Origin: Armatimonadota bacterium
GTDB lineage: Bacteria > Armatimonadota > SYMT01
Direction of reading: 5' to 3'
Assembly: GCA_041690135.1 (NCBI GenBank)
Contig: JAWLHY010000001.1
Span: 1,284,865-1,348,864 of the forward strand
Length of the DNA: 64,000 nt
This document shows positions 6,200 to 18,725 of this stretch, piece by piece. Each line of letters begins with the position of its first letter. The first letter of the stretch is position 1. The translations under genes were made by a program, and so were the position numbers. The notes under the pieces are model-generated. The model ran no database searches. It had not been told where the DNA came from and saw only the letters and a list, made by a program, of their open reading frames with translations.

Positions 6200-6910
6200 T
6201 TAACGACGCTGGAGGGCCATCAACAACCGCAGCACGTACCAGAACAGCAGGGCCACCGCGGCGAACAGTTCCAGGGCCGCCGCCACGTACTGGTCGGTCT
6301 CGTACTCATGGAGGACCTTGGAGGTGCTGTAGAGGATCGTGCCGCAAGCGAACAGGATCATCGCGGCGCTGAACCAGATGCCCAGGTTGAAGCCGAAGAT
6401 GGCGCCGCAGATGATCGCTCCCAGCGCCACGATGCCGCCGACCATCAGCGCTGTACGCAGGAAGGAGAAGTCCTTCTTGGTCATCAGCGTGTAGAACGAC
6501 AGCCCGCCGAAGGTCAGAATAGTGATACCGGCGGCCGAAGGCAGTGCTCCGGGAGCCATCACCGCGGCGAGGAAGATCATCGGGGAGAAGATGATCGCCT
6601 CGGCCAGAGTGTAGACCGCGAGCCCGCCGTACTGCATGGGAAGGCTGCGCGCGGACTGCGCCATCGAGGAGCCCATCCAGCCGGCCAGGGCGAATCCGCC
6701 CAGGATCAGCAGCCAGCCGAAGCGGTTGCCGGCGACCAGGCTCAGGATCAGGGCGCCGAGACCCACCTGGTAGAACAGGAACGAAAGGGCGACGAAGCCG
6801 ATGACCGCACCCGTCAGGTGCAGGTAGGTTTTGCGGATGAACGCCAGGCGCTCATCCAGGGGAGCGGATATGACCCCGGAATACCCGGGGAACCGATCGG
6901 TCATGCTCAT
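6200..6910 (-). CDS. Bax inhibitor-1/YccA (TMBIM) family membrane protein
   Basis: Seven hydrophobic segments and the typical C-terminal ILYSTSKVLHEYETDQYVAAALELF...LLFWYVLRLL motif. AGGAG RBS. Confidence 0.9.
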   Translation of the reverse strand: MSMTDRFPGYSGVISAPLDERLAFIRKTYLHLTGAVIGFVALSFLFYQVGLGALILSLVAGNRFGWLLILGGFALAGWMGSSMAQSARSLPMQYGGLAVYTLAEAIIFSPMIFLAAVMAPGALPSAAGITILTFGGLSFYTLMTKKDFSFLRTALMVGGIVALGAIICGAIFGFNLGIWFSAAMILFACGTILYSTSKVLHEYETDQYVAAALELFAAVALLFWYVLRLLMALQRR

Positions 6911-7323
6911 GGAAGCAGTTCTCCTGATGCCGGCAGAATTGGATCCGGCACTGGCACCAATTCGAATCTAACAAACTCTTGGGAATCCGCCAACCAGACC
7001 ACCCTCTTGTGCCCTTCCAACGCAACACCTTGCGACCGCCGTCCGGCACTCAATGGGATGGCGGCAGGTACCTGTAGAGGAGCGGTCGGCCCTGCACATC
7101 GTGCAGGAAGCCAGCTCTGAAGGATAGTTCACCCTCTGCGGGCCGGAATCCTTCGCCACTGGAGGAAAGGGTTGGAAGTTGGGGATACCGGCAACCGGAA
7201 GGGTTTCGTCGCCGCATCGGGCGGGTACTCCCGCTGTGCGATGCCCGTGTGAAGCTGCACGGCTTCCGGATGCCGCGCGCGACGATGTCGCCGCACGCAC
7301 AGTACCTCAAAGGAGAAAAGACG

Positions 7324-12839: not shown

Positions 12840-13339
12840 CGGACAGACTCTAGGAAATAGACTTGCATCATCCTGGAGAGCGTTCTACCCAACTGGAGTG
12901 GTATGCCGCGCACGTTCCCGGCGGCCCGCTTCTTGGGGGTCCCATTCACCAGAACATTATACGCTTTCTGGGCTCCGATCTTTTTGCCGCTAAATGTGAA
13001 GTCGGTGCTGGTAGTCCATGAGCAGTGGGCGCCCGTCTTCTGCAGGGTGGTTCCGGCACAGGGCGGCTGGTCCCATGATGTCACTACGGAGTCCCAACGC
13101 TATCGTGGGGACCTTCCACACATCATGGGAGTTCTCCGGTACTTGGCGGTCGAGCCCGCATCACAGCATGGGTGACCGCCGGAGTTGCCGTCCCTTTCTG
13201 TTCCGTCTCCACCCTTGGCTCCCTCAGGGTCTTCTATGCTCCGGGAGACTTTCATCGACTTTTTCTATTCGACACACGTATCTGGTGGATCTAGACTTAG
13301 CATGGCCCCCGCGCAAACAGACGCCCGGGGTGGAAACGG

Positions 13340-14485
13340 GTGGAAGCCATGCGTTCAGCGGTCGAGACGGCGGAGAGAGTGGCGCGCGAGGCACTCGCGC
13401 CCTGGGCGGAGCATGTGGACCGGGAGGGTCGCTGGCCGGCGGAGTCTCGGGCGGCGCTCGGTGGAGCCGGGTTGCTTGGGCTCGCTGTCCCCGAAGCCTA
13501 TGGAGGCCTCGGTGCTTCTCCGACCGTGGTGTCGGCGGTCGTGCGCACGCTGGCGGAGAGTTGTGCCTCCACGGCGATGATCTTCATGATGCACGTGTGC
13601 GCGCAGCAGGTGATCGCACAGGCGGAGGCGTTCCCCTTTCGTGAGGAGATTCTCCGGGCGATGGCCCGCGGGGAGCACCTCAGCACCCTGGCCTTCAGCG
13701 AGAAGGGCTCGCGGAGCCACTTCTGGGCGCCGGTGAGCCAGGCCGTGGCCGACGGAGACATCCATCGGCTCAGTGCGGAGAAGTCCTGGGTCACCAGCGC
13801 GGGACAGGCGGACAGTTACGTCGTGTCCACCCGCAGCACCGCGGCAGCGGAGATGACCGCTTCCACGCTTTACTATGTCCCGAACGGCGCCGCCGGGCTC
13901 AGCGTGGCGGGCTCTTGGTCTGGCCTCGGCCTTCGCGGGAATGCCAGCGCGCCGATGCGGCTCAAAAACGTGTCGGTGCCCGCTTCGCACCGCTTGAGCG
14001 GCGAGGGCGAAGGGTTCGGTGCGATGCTCAGCGTGGTCCTCCCCTGGTTTCAGCTCTGCAGCGCGTCCGTTTCCGTGGGGATCGCCGCGGCGGCGACGGA
14101 GGCCACCCGGCGCCACCTGATGGCCTCCAAACTGGAGCACCTGGACCAATCCCTGGCCTCCCTGATGAACCTGCGCGCGCGGTTGGCCCAGATGCAGATC
14201 GCCGTCGACACCCAGCGCGTGTTCCTGAACCACGTGGCGGGCCGGATGGAGAATCCCGGCCCCGACACGATGCTGGCAGTGCTGGAGAGCAAAGCCGCCG
14301 CCGCCGAGGTGGCGCTCGAGGTGACCGATCTGGCGATGCGGACCTGCGGAGGCGCCGCGTTTAGCCGGCACCTGGGTGTGGAGCGGAATTTCCGTGATGC
14401 CCGCGCCGGGGCGGTGATGGCCCCCACGACCGACGTACTGCATGATTTCATCGGCAAGGCACTCCTTGAGATGCCGCTGTTCTGA
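13340..14485 (+). CDS. Acyl-CoA dehydrogenase-fold flavoenzyme
   Basis: GLLGLAVPEAYGGLGAS and a C-terminal RTCGGAAFSRHLGVERNFRDARAGAVMAPT pattern typical of the ACAD family. Confidence 0.9.
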   Translation: MEAMRSAVETAERVAREALAPWAEHVDREGRWPAESRAALGGAGLLGLAVPEAYGGLGASPTVVSAVVRTLAESCASTAMIFMMHVCAQQVIAQAEAFPFREEILRAMARGEHLSTLAFSEKGSRSHFWAPVSQAVADGDIHRLSAEKSWVTSAGQADSYVVSTRSTAAAEMTASTLYYVPNGAAGLSVAGSWSGLGLRGNASAPMRLKNVSVPASHRLSGEGEGFGAMLSVVLPWFQLCSASVSVGIAAAATEATRRHLMASKLEHLDQSLASLMNLRARLAQMQIAVDTQRVFLNHVAGRMENPGPDTMLAVLESKAAAAEVALEVTDLAMRTCGGAAFSRHLGVERNFRDARAGAVMAPTTDVLHDFIGKALLEMPLF

Positions 14486-14523: not shown

Positions 14524-15357
14524 ATGGACCGTCCGATCTTGATTGGCGCCGTCGCCTACGACCAGCGTGTGGTCCCGATCTGGGAAGGCATGCGCGACTA
14601 CTTCCGCGAGGCCGGCATGCCGATCGACTACGTCCTCTACTCGAACTACGACCGGCAGGTAGAGGCCCTCCTGGACCGGCAAATCGATATCGCCTGGAAC
14701 ACCAACCTGGCCTGGCTGAAGGTCTGTCGCCGCACCGACAACCGCTGCCGGGCGCTCGCGATGCGGGATGTGGACGCCGATTTCAAGACCGTTTTCGTGG
14801 CGCGGACGGACAGCGGCATCCAGTCGCTCGCCGATATTCATGGCAAGCGTCTGGCCCTCGGCTCCGCCGACTCCGGTCAGGCCGCCATCCTTCCCATTGA
14901 GTTTCTCCGCGAAGCCGGCGTGGATGCCGAGCGAGAGTGCCGGGTGTCCCGGTTCAACCTGGACGTGGGCAAACACGGCGACACGGGCACCAGCGAGCTG
15001 GAAGTTCTGCGCGCCCTCCGTGACGGGGAGGCGGATGCGGGCGCCATGGCGGACTCTACCTGGATCCGGCAGGTCACCGAAGGACGGGTGGACCCGACGC
15101 AGGTGCGCGCGATCTGGACCTCTCCCGGCTACTGCCACTGCAACTTCACGGTCCTGGAAGATTTCCCCGAAGAAGTCGGGCGCAACTGGACCGGCACTCT
15201 CCTGACGATGACCTACGACAATCCTCGCTGGCGGGAGTTGATGGACCTGGAGGGCCTCAAGCGCTGGCTGGAGGCCACGCCGGAGGTGATGAAGGGCTAC
15301 GATAGCCTCTGGGAAGCGGTGGAGCGCCAGGGCCTGACCCGCAACTGGCCGTCGTGA
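14524..15357 (+). CDS. PhnD/SsuA/transferrin-family substrate-binding-like protein without a signal peptide
   Basis: PhnD-like N-terminus (LIGAVAYDQRVVPIWEGMRDYFREAGMPIDYVLYSNYDRQVEALLDRQIDIAWN). No hydrophobic leader. GAGGGTA RBS. Confidence 0.75.
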   Translation: MDRPILIGAVAYDQRVVPIWEGMRDYFREAGMPIDYVLYSNYDRQVEALLDRQIDIAWNTNLAWLKVCRRTDNRCRALAMRDVDADFKTVFVARTDSGIQSLADIHGKRLALGSADSGQAAILPIEFLREAGVDAERECRVSRFNLDVGKHGDTGTSELEVLRALRDGEADAGAMADSTWIRQVTEGRVDPTQVRAIWTSPGYCHCNFTVLEDFPEEVGRNWTGTLLTMTYDNPRWRELMDLEGLKRWLEATPEVMKGYDSLWEAVERQGLTRNWPS

Positions 15358-16631
15358 GTTCCCGAATGGAAGAGTTTCCGCAGCCGGCAGCGCTGGTCGA
15401 GGGCGGCGCACTGGAAGTGGGCAACGGCCTGCTGATGCTTCTTCGCGAAGCCATGGAGCCGCTCCCGCCGGACGCCGTGGTGGCCGTACGCGCCTCCCAC
15501 CCCACGGTGGCTCACGACCTGCCCGCCTGGTGCCGGGTGATGGCGCATACGTACATGGGTGCGGCGTCCGGCCCGGATGGAACGGTCTACTACTTCCGGA
15601 AGAGCCCCTTCCTCCCCATCGCCACCGAAGAGCGGCCGGACTGGGGGGTGCGGATGCCCCGTCGCGACAACGGGGAACTCCACACACGGGATTGGATGGT
15701 CGGCCGGGTGGAGGCGGTGCCGGACCGGGCGACCACCACCACCGGATTCGCGCCGCGTGGAGCCGTAGTAGAGCAGGGCGCGCCGGCTTTCGACTTCACC
15801 ATCAACGAGCGCTCCGCGGTGTGGGCGGCGGAGGTCGCGGATCTCTACGAGCAGGCGACGGCCAACCAGTGGGACGCCTCTCGCGATATTCCGTGGGACC
15901 GCCTGGAGCCGCTGCCGGAACCGCTGGAGCGGGCTGTCTGCCAGTTGATGACGTTTCTGACGGAGAACGAGTACTCTGCTCTCTACGTCCCCGCGAAGTT
16001 CGTCCCGCGCATCAACCCGCAGTTCAATGAAGTCGTGATGTTCCTCTGCACGCAGATGATGGATGAATCACGGCACATCGAGGCTTTCACCAAGCGTGCC
16101 CTGGCCAACGGCGGCGGGCTCCAGTACTCGGCCGCGTCAACCCAGCTCAGCCTGAAGACGCTGTTCGATCAACACGACTTCACCTCCGCCTCCTTCCTCC
16201 TCTCCGTGCTTGGCGAGGGGACCTTCCTGGATCTCCTGCGGTTCATCGAGACGCACGCGCCGGACCCGGTAACCGCCGAGATCTGTCGCCGCGCGCGCGT
16301 GGACGAGACGCGCCACGTGCATTTCGGGATGGCCCACATGCGCTACTACCTCGCGCAGGACCCGGCCAACTATGAGCACCTCGAACGGGCGGTGCGGGAG
16401 CGGGCCGCGTTCATGCAGTCGGTGACGGAGGTGAGCCCGCGGGTCCAGGAAGCGCTGGCGATCCTCGCGGCGGGTGGCTTGAACGCGGACCGCCTGCCGG
16501 AAGGGCTGGCGAAAGTGCGGGCTCTCGTGAGTGAGATGCACGAGCACCGCATGCGCCGTCTCTTGGCCGCCGGCTTCTCCGCGGAGCAGGCAGTCGAGAT
16601 CTCCCGCCTCCACACCCCGAACTTCATGTAA
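15354..16631 (+). CDS. TusA-like N-terminal domain fused to a ferritin-like diiron-carboxylate domain
   Basis: GTGA start/stop overlap with the upstream gene. Two E...ExxH pairs (ENEY...DESRHIE and GEG...DETRHVH) with about 32-36 residue spacing. Confidence 0.7.
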   Translation: MSSRMEEFPQPAALVEGGALEVGNGLLMLLREAMEPLPPDAVVAVRASHPTVAHDLPAWCRVMAHTYMGAASGPDGTVYYFRKSPFLPIATEERPDWGVRMPRRDNGELHTRDWMVGRVEAVPDRATTTTGFAPRGAVVEQGAPAFDFTINERSAVWAAEVADLYEQATANQWDASRDIPWDRLEPLPEPLERAVCQLMTFLTENEYSALYVPAKFVPRINPQFNEVVMFLCTQMMDESRHIEAFTKRALANGGGLQYSAASTQLSLKTLFDQHDFTSASFLLSVLGEGTFLDLLRFIETHAPDPVTAEICRRARVDETRHVHFGMAHMRYYLAQDPANYEHLERAVRERAAFMQSVTEVSPRVQEALAILAAGGLNADRLPEGLAKVRALVSEMHEHRMRRLLAAGFSAEQAVEISRLHTPNFM

Positions 16632-16735: not shown

Positions 16736-16765
16736 TTGACATCCCCCCGCGCGAGCCGCTACTAT
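16736..16765 (+). promoter_or_regulatory. Sigma70-like promoter for tRNA-Gln (TTGACA-N18-TACTAT)
   Basis: Perfect -35 TTGACA at 16736-16741 and a -10 TACTAT at 16760-16765. The tRNA 5' end lies 10 nt downstream. Confidence 0.5.
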
Positions 16766-16775
16766 ACAACCACGT

Positions 16776-16848
16776 TGCCGGATAGCTCAGTTGGCAGAGC
16801 GACTGACTCTGGATCAGTAGGTCCTAGGTTCGAGCCCTAGTCCGGCAG
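16776..16848 (+). tRNA. tRNA-Gln (anticodon CUG)
   Basis: Hand-folded cloverleaf: acceptor TGCCGGA/TCCGGCA (U1:A72), D-stem GCTC/GAGC, anticodon stem ACTGA/TCAGT with loop CTCTGGA, T-loop TTCGAGC, discriminator G. No encoded CCA. Confidence 0.9.
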
Positions 16849-16997
16849 TGTTTCCCACCCCATTGGATTGACCAGGAGCGCCCCTTCCCGCTGCGCCCCG
16901 ACGTCGATCGCAAAAGAGGCCGGGCAGGTCGCGACCCTCGCGTCTGTCCGGTTTTTTCACGTCTAGTGGACCGAGGAATTGGAGCAGGGAGACGAGA

Positions 16998-18725
16998 GTG
17001 AGCCAGGGACAAGAAGTGGAGAAGACGGTAACTTCGGCGGACTCCGCGGGTCGTCGCGAAGTGCCGACCGACTACATCCGGGAAGCGATCAAGGAAGACC
17101 TCCGCAACGGACGGTTCGACCGCGTGCACACGCGCTTTCCTCCGGAGCCGAACGCCTACCTGCACATCGGGCACGCGAAGGCCGTCTGGATCGACTACGG
17201 CATCGCGCTGGACTTCGGCGGGTTGTTCAACCTGCGCTTCGATGATACGAACCCGGTGCGCGAAGATCAGGAGTTTGTGGACGGCATTATCGAGGACGTG
17301 CGCTGGCTCGGTGCCGACTGGGGTGACCGGCTCTGCTTCGCATCCGACTACTTCGAGCAGATGTACGCGTGGGCTCTTGACCTGATCCGCAAGGGTAAGG
17401 CCTACGTGTGCGATCTTACGGCGGAGGAGCTGAGCGCCACCCGCGGCACCCTCACCACTCCGGGCCAGGAAAGTCCCTTCCGGAACCGCAGCGTGGAGGA
17501 GAACCTGGACCTGTTCGCGCGCATGCGGGCCGGCGAATTTCCCGACGGCGCCCGGACGCTCCGCGCGAAGATCGACATGGCCTCGCCGAACATGGTCATG
17601 CGCGATCCCGTGATGTACCGCATCCTTCATACCAAGCACCATCGCCAGGGCGATAAGTGGTGCATCTACCCGACCTACGACTGGGCCCACGGCCTCGAGG
17701 ATTCCATCGAGGGGGTCACCCACTCCCTCTGCTCGCAGGAGTACGAGATCCACCGGCCGCTCTATGACTGGTTCCTGGATGAACTGGACATCTATCATCC
17801 GCGCCAGATCGAGTTCGCGCGCCTGAACCTGACCCACACCGTGATGAGCAAGCGCCGCTTCATCGAGCTGGTGAACGGAGGGCACGTCCAGGGCTACGAC
17901 GATCCCCGGCTGCCGACGCTCGCCGGGCTGCGCCGCCGCGGCTACACGCCCGAAGCGATTCGGGAGTTCTGCCGTCGGATCGGCGTCTCTAAGACGGATA
18001 GCTGCGTGGAAGTGGCGTACCTGGAAGACTGCGTCCGCGAGGACCTGAACCGGTGGTCGCCCCGCGTGATGTCTGTGCTGGACCCGCTGAAGGTGGTGCT
18101 GGTGAACTACCCCGAGGGCCAGACGGAAGAGCTCGACGTCATCAACAACCCCGAGGATCCCGCCGCCGGAACCCGCAAGGTGACCTTCGCCCGCGAGCTG
18201 TACATCGAGCGCGACGACTTCCGCGAGGAGCCGCCGCCCAAGTTCTTCCGGCTGGCTCCCGGTCGTGAGGTCCGGCTGCGGAACGCCTACCTGGTCCGGT
18301 GCGTGGACGTGATCAAGGACGCGGAAGGCAACGTCACCGAGGTCCACTGCACCTACGATCCGGAGACCCGCGGTGGGGATGCGCCGGACGGACGCAAGGT
18401 AAAGGCTACCCTGCACTGGCTCGCGGCCCCGGCAGCCGTTCCGGCCGAGGTCCGGCTCTACGACCACCTGTTCGTGAAACCGGATCCGGACGACGTGGAG
18501 CCCGGCCAGACCTACTTCGACAATCTCAACCCGAACTCGCTGAAGGTGGTCTCGGGATTTGTGGAACCGGCCGTAGCCGAAGCGGCCCCCGGCACGCGCT
18601 ACCAGTTCGAGCGCCTGGGTTACTTCTGCGTGGACAAGGAATCCACGCCGGAGAGACCCGTCTTCAACCGGACAGTTACCCTCCGCGATACCTGGGCCAA
18701 AATCGAAAAGCGCACGGGCAAGTAA
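16998..18725 (+). CDS. glnS: Glutamine--tRNA ligase
   Basis: [16 protein letters not shown] (HIGH) and VMSKR (KMSKS) class I motifs. Length and pattern fit GlnRS. Confidence 0.95.

Follow-up and report, generated by a model that had tools for sequence, protein, structure and literature searches.

The described systems closest to the protein considered here are the sulfur carrier TusA of Escherichia coli with its relative YhhP (PDB 3LVJ, 3LVK and 1DCJ; PF01206) and several dimetal proteins of the ferritin-like superfamily, namely R2lox (PDB 4HR0 and 3EE4; NF006200), the azoxy synthase VlmB with its Kitasatospora homologue (8WVR, 6D9F) and cyanobacterial ADO (4RC6, 4KVQ). VlmB is a dimetal oxidase that carries out a substrate-driven multi-electron oxidation. 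Diiron proteins also have known radical S-adenosylmethionine (radical-SAM) counterparts; AcsF and BchE form one such pair, and class I R2 and the class III activase NrdG form another. Here we describe a gene that joins a TusA-fold domain to a ferritin-like domain, the last gene of a three-gene cassette in a 64,000-nucleotide stretch of an Armatimonadota genome (contig JAWLHY010000001.1, positions 1,284,865 to 1,348,864, forward strand; this whole stretch is called the window, and positions are counted from its first letter). Sequence comparison places the core of the fusion in a remote, unnamed branch of the ferritin-like dimetal superfamily, within a large uncharacterised family. New here are the three-gene cassette, relatives of the fusion that bear the TusA cysteine and are linked to TusA and DsrE genes, and a parallel radical-SAM system of the Rv1681 type.

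The fusion gene and its operon

All three genes lie close together on the same strand, and the fusion gene comes last:

13269 to 13297, + strand: promoter-like site upstream of the operon, TCGACA-17-TAGACT, 9 of 12 matches in a consensus scan, which is weak evidence
13340 to 14485, + strand: gene 1, flavoprotein of the acyl-CoA dehydrogenase (ACAD) fold, Rv1679/FadE16-like (NCBIfam, Pfam, PDB)
14524 to 15357, + strand: gene 2, protein of the PhnD/NMT1-type periplasmic-binding-protein fold, Rv1680-like (NCBIfam, Pfam, PDB), below called the substrate-binding-protein-like (SBP-like) protein
15354 to 16631, + strand: gene 3, TusA-like/ferritin-like fusion of 425 amino acids, with another possible ATG start at 15366

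An earlier note on this DNA, made from the letters alone, had drawn attention to the gene 3 reading frame, which is present as described there. Genes 1 and 2 are separated by 38 nucleotides, and the GTG start of gene 3 overlaps the TGA stop of gene 2 (TCGTGAG; GTGA), so that the two genes share 4 nucleotides, an arrangement that indicates translational coupling. Starting instead at the ATG at 15366 gives a product of 421 residues that is 100% identical to a protein-database entry. In the databases, homologues are named solely 'ferritin-like domain-containing protein' or 'TusA-related sulfurtransferase'. The writer of the earlier note knew of no characterised protein that combines TusA and ferritin-like domains, and we too found none in Pfam, NCBIfam, the PDB or the literature; publications on TusA together with ferritin-like, DsrE or diiron proteins contained no functional description. 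The DNA preceding the operon, in the window as well as at nine Bacillota loci, showed no riboswitch or RNA leader.

The ferritin-like domain and its predicted dimetal site

The C-terminal part of the protein and the segment preceding it contain the following features:

15630 to 15833, + strand: conserved extended segment, residues 93-160 (PDWG...RDWxVGR...GFAPRGAVxExGxP), mostly non-helical, modelled with a predicted local distance difference test score (pLDDT) of 76-95
15834 to 16610, + strand: ferritin-like helical-bundle dimetal-carboxylate domain, residues 161-419 (Foldseek against the PDB; family profile)
15963 to 15974, + strand: ENEY, residues 204-207, with E206 the predicted first metal ligand (invariant; aligns with R2lox E69)
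16062 to 16082, + strand: DESRHIE, residues 237-243, with predicted ligands E238 and H241 (aligns with R2lox DEAKHVE, E102/H105)
16086 to 16088, + strand: Phe245 at the position of the R2 radical tyrosine (invariant; four residues after His241)
16212 to 16220, + strand: GEG, residues 287-289, with E288 predicted as third carboxylate ligand (its counterpart in 6D9F is the Glu of 'IIIEG')
16302 to 16322, + strand: DETRHVH, residues 317-323, with predicted ligands E318 and H321 (aligns with R2lox MDEGRHIQ and with IDEVRH of the VlmB homologue)
16611 to 16631, + strand: C-terminal tail HTPNFM and stop codon (invariant among homologues)

We read this part as a ferritin-like dimetal-carboxylate domain with a predicted ligand set that is complete and invariant. 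The earlier note had proposed a ferritin-like E/ExxH/E/ExxH site here, and this proposal is borne out by residue invariance, by the alignment of the ligands and by the modelled fold. The four motifs that it named are all present; the spacings were miscounted, with 29 residues rather than 36 between ENEY and DESRHIE and 27 rather than 32 between GEG and DETRHVH. From ligand to ligand, the distances are 32 (E206 to E238) and 30 (E288 to E318). The ligand motif alone is weak evidence, because a loose E..ExxH..E..ExxH pattern occurs in 7% of shuffles of the Glu-rich gene 3 protein. Residue conservation was read from an alignment of 22 gene 3 homologues from several phyla (52-88% identity) and from 80 genome loci. 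E204, E206, E238, H241, E288, E318 and H321 are invariant in the alignment and at 80 of the 80 loci, and conservation is extreme outside the metal site as well. In phmmer and profile searches, E206, E238/H241 and E318/H321 align with E69, E102/H105 and E202/H205 of R2lox, which we take to be its ligand residues, a numbering that agrees with the E69D entries among the matches; E288 aligns with the equivalent Glu of the VlmB homologue 6D9F.

An AlphaFold2 model computed from 51 sequences has a pLDDT of 93.2 and a predicted template-modelling (pTM) score of 0.85. Searching a structure model for related folds, which the earlier note had suggested as a check, led to the ferritin-like dimetal oxidases: Foldseek found 80 PDB matches at E <= 1e-3, of which the 50 listed are without exception members of the ferritin-like dimetal superfamily. 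The best is the VlmB homologue 6D9F (1e-5), followed by R2lox, VlmB 8WVR, ADO 4RC6 (target-normalised template-modelling (TM) score up to 0.82) and the R2 subunit of ribonucleotide reductase. A profile of the family searched against the PDB likewise finds R2lox and the VlmB homologue, both at 1e-6. For the core, neither Pfam nor NCBIfam nor the literature yielded a family: the NCBIfam cut-offs for R2lox are not reached (NF006200, 31.6 against 194 bits; NF006201, 13.2 against 346 bits), nor are the Pfam gathering scores for AurF (PF11583, 16.1 against 29.6 bits) and DUF455 (PF04305, 17.6 against 34.3 bits). The Pfam Ferritin match is weak (E 0.11), and sequence similarity to R2 is very weak.

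R2lox has the E/ExxH/E/ExxH ligands residue for residue and the Phe at the R2 tyrosine position, but is only ~18-20% identical and lacks the TusA domain, the conserved 70-residue N-terminal extension, the HTPNFM tail and the ACAD and SBP partners. VlmB and its homologue give the best match in both sequence and fold (E 2e-5 to 1e-6); they are ~20% identical. VlmB has no TusA domain and is part of a natural-product gene cluster, whereas the fusion belongs to a stand-alone three-gene cassette found across phyla. The core bundle superposes best on ADO by target-normalised TM (0.74-0.82), but ADO is a minimal bundle of ~230 residues with 15-18% identity, no fused domain and other partners.

Two further conserved regions flank the metal site. 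Within residues 93-160, D96, W97, D113, G117, P123, G131, F132, P134, R135, G136, E140 and P144 are invariant, and we count this segment as part of the core because homologues without a TusA domain match from about residue 93 onward. At the other end, HT[PAS]N[FY]M closes essentially all complete homologues and could be a partner-binding or an active-site tail.

The TusA-fold domain

The N-terminal domain has two features of note for what follows:

15381 to 15605, + strand: TusA-fold domain, residues 10-84, beta-alpha-beta-alpha-beta-beta (models, Foldseek, profile)
15417 to 15419, + strand: Val22 in place of the TusA active-site Cys (aligns with E. coli TusA Cys19)

The earlier note had likened this region to TusA and had remarked that the CPxP cysteine is missing; both observations hold. 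Strands are predicted at residues 13-18, 42-47, 66-73 and 76-82 and helices at 22-34 and 52-62, and this topology appears both in the model of the whole protein and in one made for residues 1-92 on their own (pLDDT 85). With the isolated domain, Foldseek finds TusA (3LVK_B) at E 3e-5, with a target-normalised TM of 0.81 and a root-mean-square deviation of 2.5 A; YhhP and YeeD are the next PDB fold matches. The Pfam TusA model PF01206 matches at E 3.7e-5 (23.9 bits; gathering score 28.6), most homologues have a precomputed PF01206 match, and a profile of the family's N-terminal domains matches E. coli TusA/YhhP over the whole length at E 1e-9. Like E. coli TusA, the domain has the two-layer fold and keeps the second TusA cysteine position (Cys60 in PAWCR); unlike it, it has Val22 where TusA has the persulfide-carrying Cys19 of CPxP, and it is joined to an enzyme, whereas TusA is free. 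A Cys occupies the active-site position in just 7 of the 80 genome-locus homologues. The domain is 41% identical (E 1e-17) to a stand-alone protein, here called 'TusA2', encoded in the radical-SAM-type loci described below.

Partner genes

Three sites in the partner proteins are referred to below:

14417 to 14425, + strand: MAP of gene 1, residues 360-362, where the catalytic Glu is absent (alignment)
14971 to 14988, + strand: KHGDTG of the DVGKHGDTGxSE loop of gene 2 (invariant)
15136 to 15141, + strand: His205-Cys206 of gene 2 (invariant)

The best NCBIfam match of gene 1 is NF049984, 'Rv1679 family acyl-CoA dehydrogenase' (E 3e-136, 454.6 bits, cut-off 600), and all three Pfam ACAD domains are matched. 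Its best PDB relatives are SCAD/BCAD (~1e-36), and Ala361 aligns with the glutamate of their YEG motif. M360-A361-P362 is at least 95% conserved among 70 gene 1 orthologues, and the FAD motif KSxVT is kept. We rejected gene 1 as a canonical acyl-CoA dehydrogenase, the catalytic-Glu positions being held by Ala361 and, at the IVD-type alternative, by Trp.

Gene 2 matches NF049985 best, 'Rv1680 family SBP-like protein' (E 2e-107, 358.6 bits, cut-off 400), as well as Pfam Phosphonate-bd (E 9e-37), and its closest solved relatives are PhnD 7S6G (1e-23) and PtxB. The protein has no N-terminal signal extension, since the alignment with mature PhnD begins near residue 5-30, and its sequence marks it as a presumably cytoplasmic protein of the SBP fold. 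The DVGKHGDTGxSE loop and His205-Cys206 are invariant in 80 gene 2 orthologues, as is the pair Lys150-His151; such invariant Lys-His and His-Cys pairs look enzyme-like. An ATP-binding cassette (ABC) uptake system was considered for the trio and rejected, since the SBP-like protein lacks a signal peptide, neither a permease nor an ATPase is encoded, and the surroundings contain no transporter genes.

Both partner proteins fall below the curated cut-offs of their families, and genes 1 and 2 therefore probably form a sister group of the Rv1679 and Rv1680 families and not equivalogs.

Distribution of the cassette

The full-length architecture is matched by more than 3,000 clusters at 90% identity. 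A library at 50% identity contains 1,205 representatives at E <= 1e-3 and 164 at E <= 1e-30, and a collection with one genome per species yields 358 matching stretches. The orthologue search suggested in the earlier note thus shows the full-length fusion to be widespread, in at least eight phyla; carriers include Gemmataceae, Armatimonadota, Actinomycetota, Chloroflexota, Acidobacteriota, Bacillota, Melainabacteria/Sericytochromatia and Myxococcota, and among the cultivable ones are Paenibacillus, Cohnella, Neobacillus, Ammoniphilus and Fimbriiglobus ruber.

Gene neighbourhoods were counted in the 80 genome loci recovered. ACAD and SBP genes are both adjacent to the fusion gene and on the same strand in 61 of these, from at least eight phyla, in the order ACAD-SBP-fusion or fusion-ACAD-SBP. 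Six loci have one detectable partner (five SBP only, one ACAD only), about five end at a contig edge, two have neither partner, and six are of a TusA + DsrE type described below. The association also holds in metagenomic homologues of 36-46% identity. Around the trio, a Pfam survey of 124 flanking open reading frames (ORFs) found no enriched family, and all-versus-all clustering of ORFs found none either; in Bacillota the trio is an isolated cassette with unrelated flanks. A homology search with the SBP-like protein retrieved nothing beyond close relatives, M. tuberculosis not being among them. As a separate observation, another ORF of ~300 residues occupies the ACAD-like slot upstream of SBP-fusion in two related loci (L089, positions 6260-7171, and also L086; L numbers denote loci throughout); it may be ferritin-like, judging by an EEEVKH motif seen by eye, and has no NCBIfam match.

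The earlier note had also asked whether the two domains occur as separate genes, and they do, as TusA-less cores and as stand-alone TusA2. The TusA-less core homologues are 31-38% identical, have no Pfam domain at their N-termini, and in several cases are tandem paralogue pairs. Examples, also recorded as a side observation, are L081:515-2270, L116:128-2382 and L117:241-2840, with lengths such as 377 + 369 and 359 + 479 residues. No ACAD, SBP, TusA or DsrE genes were found near these pairs. The adjacency of the two TusA-less genes suggests a heterodimeric relative of the fusion family.

Relatives with the TusA cysteine

ACAD and SBP genes are both missing from six genome loci (L013, L018, L020, L026, L028 and L032) and from the metagenome locus L084; in their place, a stand-alone TusA gene and a DsrE-family gene lie directly upstream of the fusion. 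It is precisely these seven fusions that have a Cys where TusA has its active-site residue, within the motif GGDLDCGSGLLL. L009 is the one locus that combines a Cys-bearing fusion with ACAD and SBP genes. In a neighbour-joining tree of the core domain, which is not robust, the Cys-bearing proteins fall into two clades, each lying among cassette-type ones, which we interpret as the ancestral cysteine having been lost more than once.

Two side observations concern these relatives. The Armatimonadota metagenome-assembled genome JBKBRF01 has both types, a Cys-less fusion with ACAD + SBP (L001:8001-9275) and a Cys-bearing one with TusA + DsrE (L032:8001-9239). In L105:4529-6091 and L106:4508-6070, a 520-residue protein joins a Cys-bearing TusA2-type domain (GGDLDCGSGLLL...LPAWCRMTENE) to a MetE-like domain, similar to cobalamin-independent methionine synthase (PF01717, E 4e-32), and its gene directly follows stand-alone TusA and DsrE genes.

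Loci with a proposed radical-SAM counterpart

Locus L107 contains TusA-TusA-DsrE, a gene similar to MtaA and to uroporphyrinogen decarboxylase (MtaA/URO-D-like) and a radical-SAM gene. By a wide margin, the best NCBIfam match of the latter is NF049973, 'Rv1681 family radical SAM protein' (E 6e-79). The enzyme is short (~270 residues) and related to maturase-type SkfB, MftC-like and AhbD-like proteins. Close homologues, which are 72-86% identical to one another, occur in four arrangements, and the partners are found as follows:

L109 and L114: TusA-TusA-DsrE-URO-D-radical SAM
L110: URO-D-ACAD-SBP-radical SAM
L112: URO-D-ACAD-SBP-radical SAM, then an ArsR-rhodanese regulator and a rhodanese/metallo-beta-lactamase fusion
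L111: URO-D-ACAD-SBP-radical SAM, with DsrE-TusA-TusA divergently adjacent

The ACAD proteins of these loci are 47-51% identical to that of the window and read VMAPTTD in L110 and L112 and VMVPTTD in L111, the catalytic Glu being absent from them too; the SBP proteins are ~40% identical and keep GKHGD and HC. We had considered ACAD + SBP and TusA + DsrE as mutually exclusive sets, which was rejected, as L111 has both around one radical-SAM gene. Gene content points to a single system comprising ACAD + SBP and TusA + DsrE, whose variable part would be the TusA2-diiron fusion in some loci and, in others, radical SAM together with the URO-D-like protein. Neither the window nor any of the diiron-type loci contains a homologue of radical SAM or URO-D.

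Rv1679-Rv1680-Rv1681 of M. tuberculosis is apparently the radical-SAM version of this system. Genes 1 and 2 of the window match best the family models of Rv1679 (FadE16) and Rv1680 (NF049984 and NF049985), with scores under the cut-offs, and relatives of the Rv1679-Rv1681 type share the gene order ACAD-SBP-third enzyme; unlike in the window, the third gene encodes a radical-SAM protein (MoeX, NF049973) and not a diiron fusion, and the loci add an MtaA/URO-D-like protein. Searches of the literature on Rv1679, Rv1680, Rv1681, moeX and fadE16 found no functional description; Rv1681 is mentioned solely as a urine antigen and Rv1679 solely in a hypoxia proteome.

The radical-SAM loci have two peculiarities of their own. 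In five loci, a conserved in-frame TGA occurs in the MtaA/URO-D-like gene (SS[FL]WA*GE), and beyond it the frame continues and remains conserved:

L111:2554-2556, in-frame TGA
L112:2555-2557, in-frame TGA
L107:2911-2913, in-frame TGA
L109:6608-6610, in-frame TGA
L114:4690-4692, in-frame TGA

The intact gene of L110 (3508-4539) has TGG (Trp) at this point, and the position aligns with the zinc-ligand Cys of HxC in MtaA (PDB 4AY7). Downstream of the TGA codon, at a distance of 15 nucleotides, is a 6-bp hairpin (GUCAUC-CGUGA-GAUGGC) that is perfectly conserved; its first stem base is 19 nucleotides from the T of the codon, and L110 has an altered form. The TGA could encode selenocysteine or mark programmed read-through; the Rfam SECIS family has no match in the radical-SAM loci. 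Separately, two small membrane proteins (~190 residues with a faint DoxD match, and ~145 residues) are conserved beside the radical-SAM-type clusters and absent from nearly all diiron-type loci, apart from one weak DoxD-like match in L071:

L109:3495-4527, membrane-protein pair
L110:1900-2939, membrane-protein pair
L111:699-1733, membrane-protein pair
L112:118-1192, membrane-protein pair
L114:1831-2865, membrane-protein pair

Proposed function and alternatives

On balance we incline to regard the fusion as the O2-dependent catalytic subunit of a self-contained trio, the counterpart of a radical-SAM step in a so far undescribed pathway with a link to sulfur trafficking. Its partners would be an ACAD-fold flavoprotein without the catalytic base and a cytoplasmic SBP-fold protein. 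On this view, one and the same step would have two non-homologous solutions, the diiron fusion with O2 and the radical-SAM enzyme without it. As in AcsF/BchE and R2/NrdG, a diiron protein and a radical-SAM enzyme fill the same slot in shared gene sets; unlike in those pairs, where the substrates are known, the equivalence proposed here comes from gene context alone. A reduced Fe/Fe or Mn/Fe site would react with O2 to oxidise a substrate handed over by the partners. In the Cys-bearing relatives, the substrate or its sulfur may be a persulfide on the fused TusA domain, delivered from TusA1 and DsrE. In the window protein, the Cys-less TusA domain would only dock or gate, and the substrate would be presented by the ACAD-like and SBP-like proteins, with His205-Cys206 of the latter as a candidate handling site.

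The least secure step is the nature of the substrate. Our best guess is a sulfur-containing species, which could be sulfane sulfur bound to a carrier or else a small organosulfur compound, because of the TusA/DsrE clusters and the persulfide-type genes of L112. A bolder form of the proposal, which we put forward tentatively and think possible rather than probable, is that the fusion and the Rv1681-family enzyme catalyse the same step, that their pathway handles sulfur (or selenium) carried by TusA and DsrE, and that the dimetal site acts on a carrier-bound persulfide or organosulfur intermediate; such a pathway would span Planctomycetes, Armatimonadota and Bacillota to the mycobacteria (Rv1679-Rv1681). 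We know of no ferritin-like oxidase with this type of reaction.

Several observations weigh against the sulfur-linked proposal. A direct sulfur role of the window TusA domain is excluded, the carrier Cys being absent as in most cassette-type members: with Val22 at this position, the domain has no residue there on which a persulfide could be borne. The suggestion in the earlier note that a carrier module may be coupled to an O2-activating centre is thus supported for the family, by the Cys-bearing relatives beside TusA and DsrE, and does not hold literally for the window protein. In addition, no sulfur-metabolism gene is enriched beside the diiron-type trio among the flanking ORFs surveyed, and the link to sulfur is therefore indirect, through the Cys-bearing relatives and the radical-SAM-type loci. 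The two systems are also not strictly one-for-one; the URO-D-like partner is missing from the diiron loci, and at one locus, L113, the radical-SAM homologue stands without any of the partners. Finally, the presumed adjacency of Rv1679, Rv1680 and Rv1681 was read from the running numbers of the locus tags after which the NCBIfam models are named.

The same Val22 and the lack of sulfur genes around the trio would be expected if the fusion were a dimetal oxidase or oxygenase acting on a small molecule other than a sulfur compound, such as an acyl-CoA, fatty-acyl or phosph(on)ate compound, with the TusA-like domain a structural relic and the sulfur-relay neighbours of its relatives incidental. The closest structural relatives, R2lox, ADO and VlmB, act on lipids, aldehydes and N-N compounds, the ACAD-like partner is nearest to short-chain acyl-CoA dehydrogenases, and the SBP-like partner is nearest to phosphonate, phosphite and phosphate binders. 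We nevertheless think this unlikely: the N-terminal domain is specifically akin to TusA2 of TusA/DsrE clusters, the Cys-bearing members of the family sit within such clusters, the same ACAD and SBP families occur with TusA-TusA-DsrE in L111 and by persulfide-type genes in L112, and the cassette has neither a CoA ligase or transferase nor phosphonate genes. A shade less likely still is an R2-like oxidant or radical generator, or a maturase, in which the dimetal site (possibly Mn/Fe) would introduce a radical or a post-translational modification into a partner, for example at His205-Cys206 or Lys150-His151 of the SBP-like protein, and the small radical-SAM enzyme would have this effect without oxygen, like class I and class III ribonucleotide reductases or radical-SAM maturases. 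R2lox and R2 are among the best fold matches, and Phe245 is invariant four residues after His241, where Mn/Fe R2c and R2lox also have Phe. The invariant HTPNFM tail resembles the C-terminal tail by which R2 binds its partner, the radical-SAM counterpart is of the short, maturase-like kind, and the invariant residue pairs of the SBP-like protein are enzyme-like. Such a role would leave the tight fusion to a sulfur-carrier-type domain unexplained, however, and fits poorly with the very weak sequence similarity to R2. Iron storage, peroxide detoxification or redox sensing by a non-enzymatic ferritin- or rubrerythrin-like protein would agree with the superfamily fold and the weak Pfam Ferritin match, but we consider it very improbable, given that the best matches are substrate-binding oxidases and not ferritins or rubrerythrins, that there is no rubredoxin domain, that the gene is coupled to two enzyme-like partners in most loci, and that residues far beyond the metal site are so strongly conserved.

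Neighbouring features in the window

Downstream of the fusion gene, a tRNA gene directly precedes a synthetase-like ORF, so that the tRNA and its cognate synthetase are adjacent:

16736 to 16765: promoter-like site before tRNA-Gln(CUG), 10 of 12 matches
16775 to 16849, + strand: tRNA-Gln(CUG)
16998 to 18725, + strand: glutaminyl-tRNA synthetase-like ORF

Implications

With so small and self-contained a cassette, and with carriers that can be cultivated, the proposal that the fusion is the O2-dependent subunit of a sulfur-linked trio can be tested directly by reconstitution and genetics. If true, it would add a new functional branch of dimetal oxidases, one with a fused domain derived from a sulfur carrier and with ACAD-fold and SBP-fold partners, and a further natural pair in which a diiron protein and a radical-SAM enzyme replace each other. 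It would also give a first functional handle on Rv1679-Rv1681 of M. tuberculosis, annotated as 'FadE16', a hypothetical protein and 'MoeX'.

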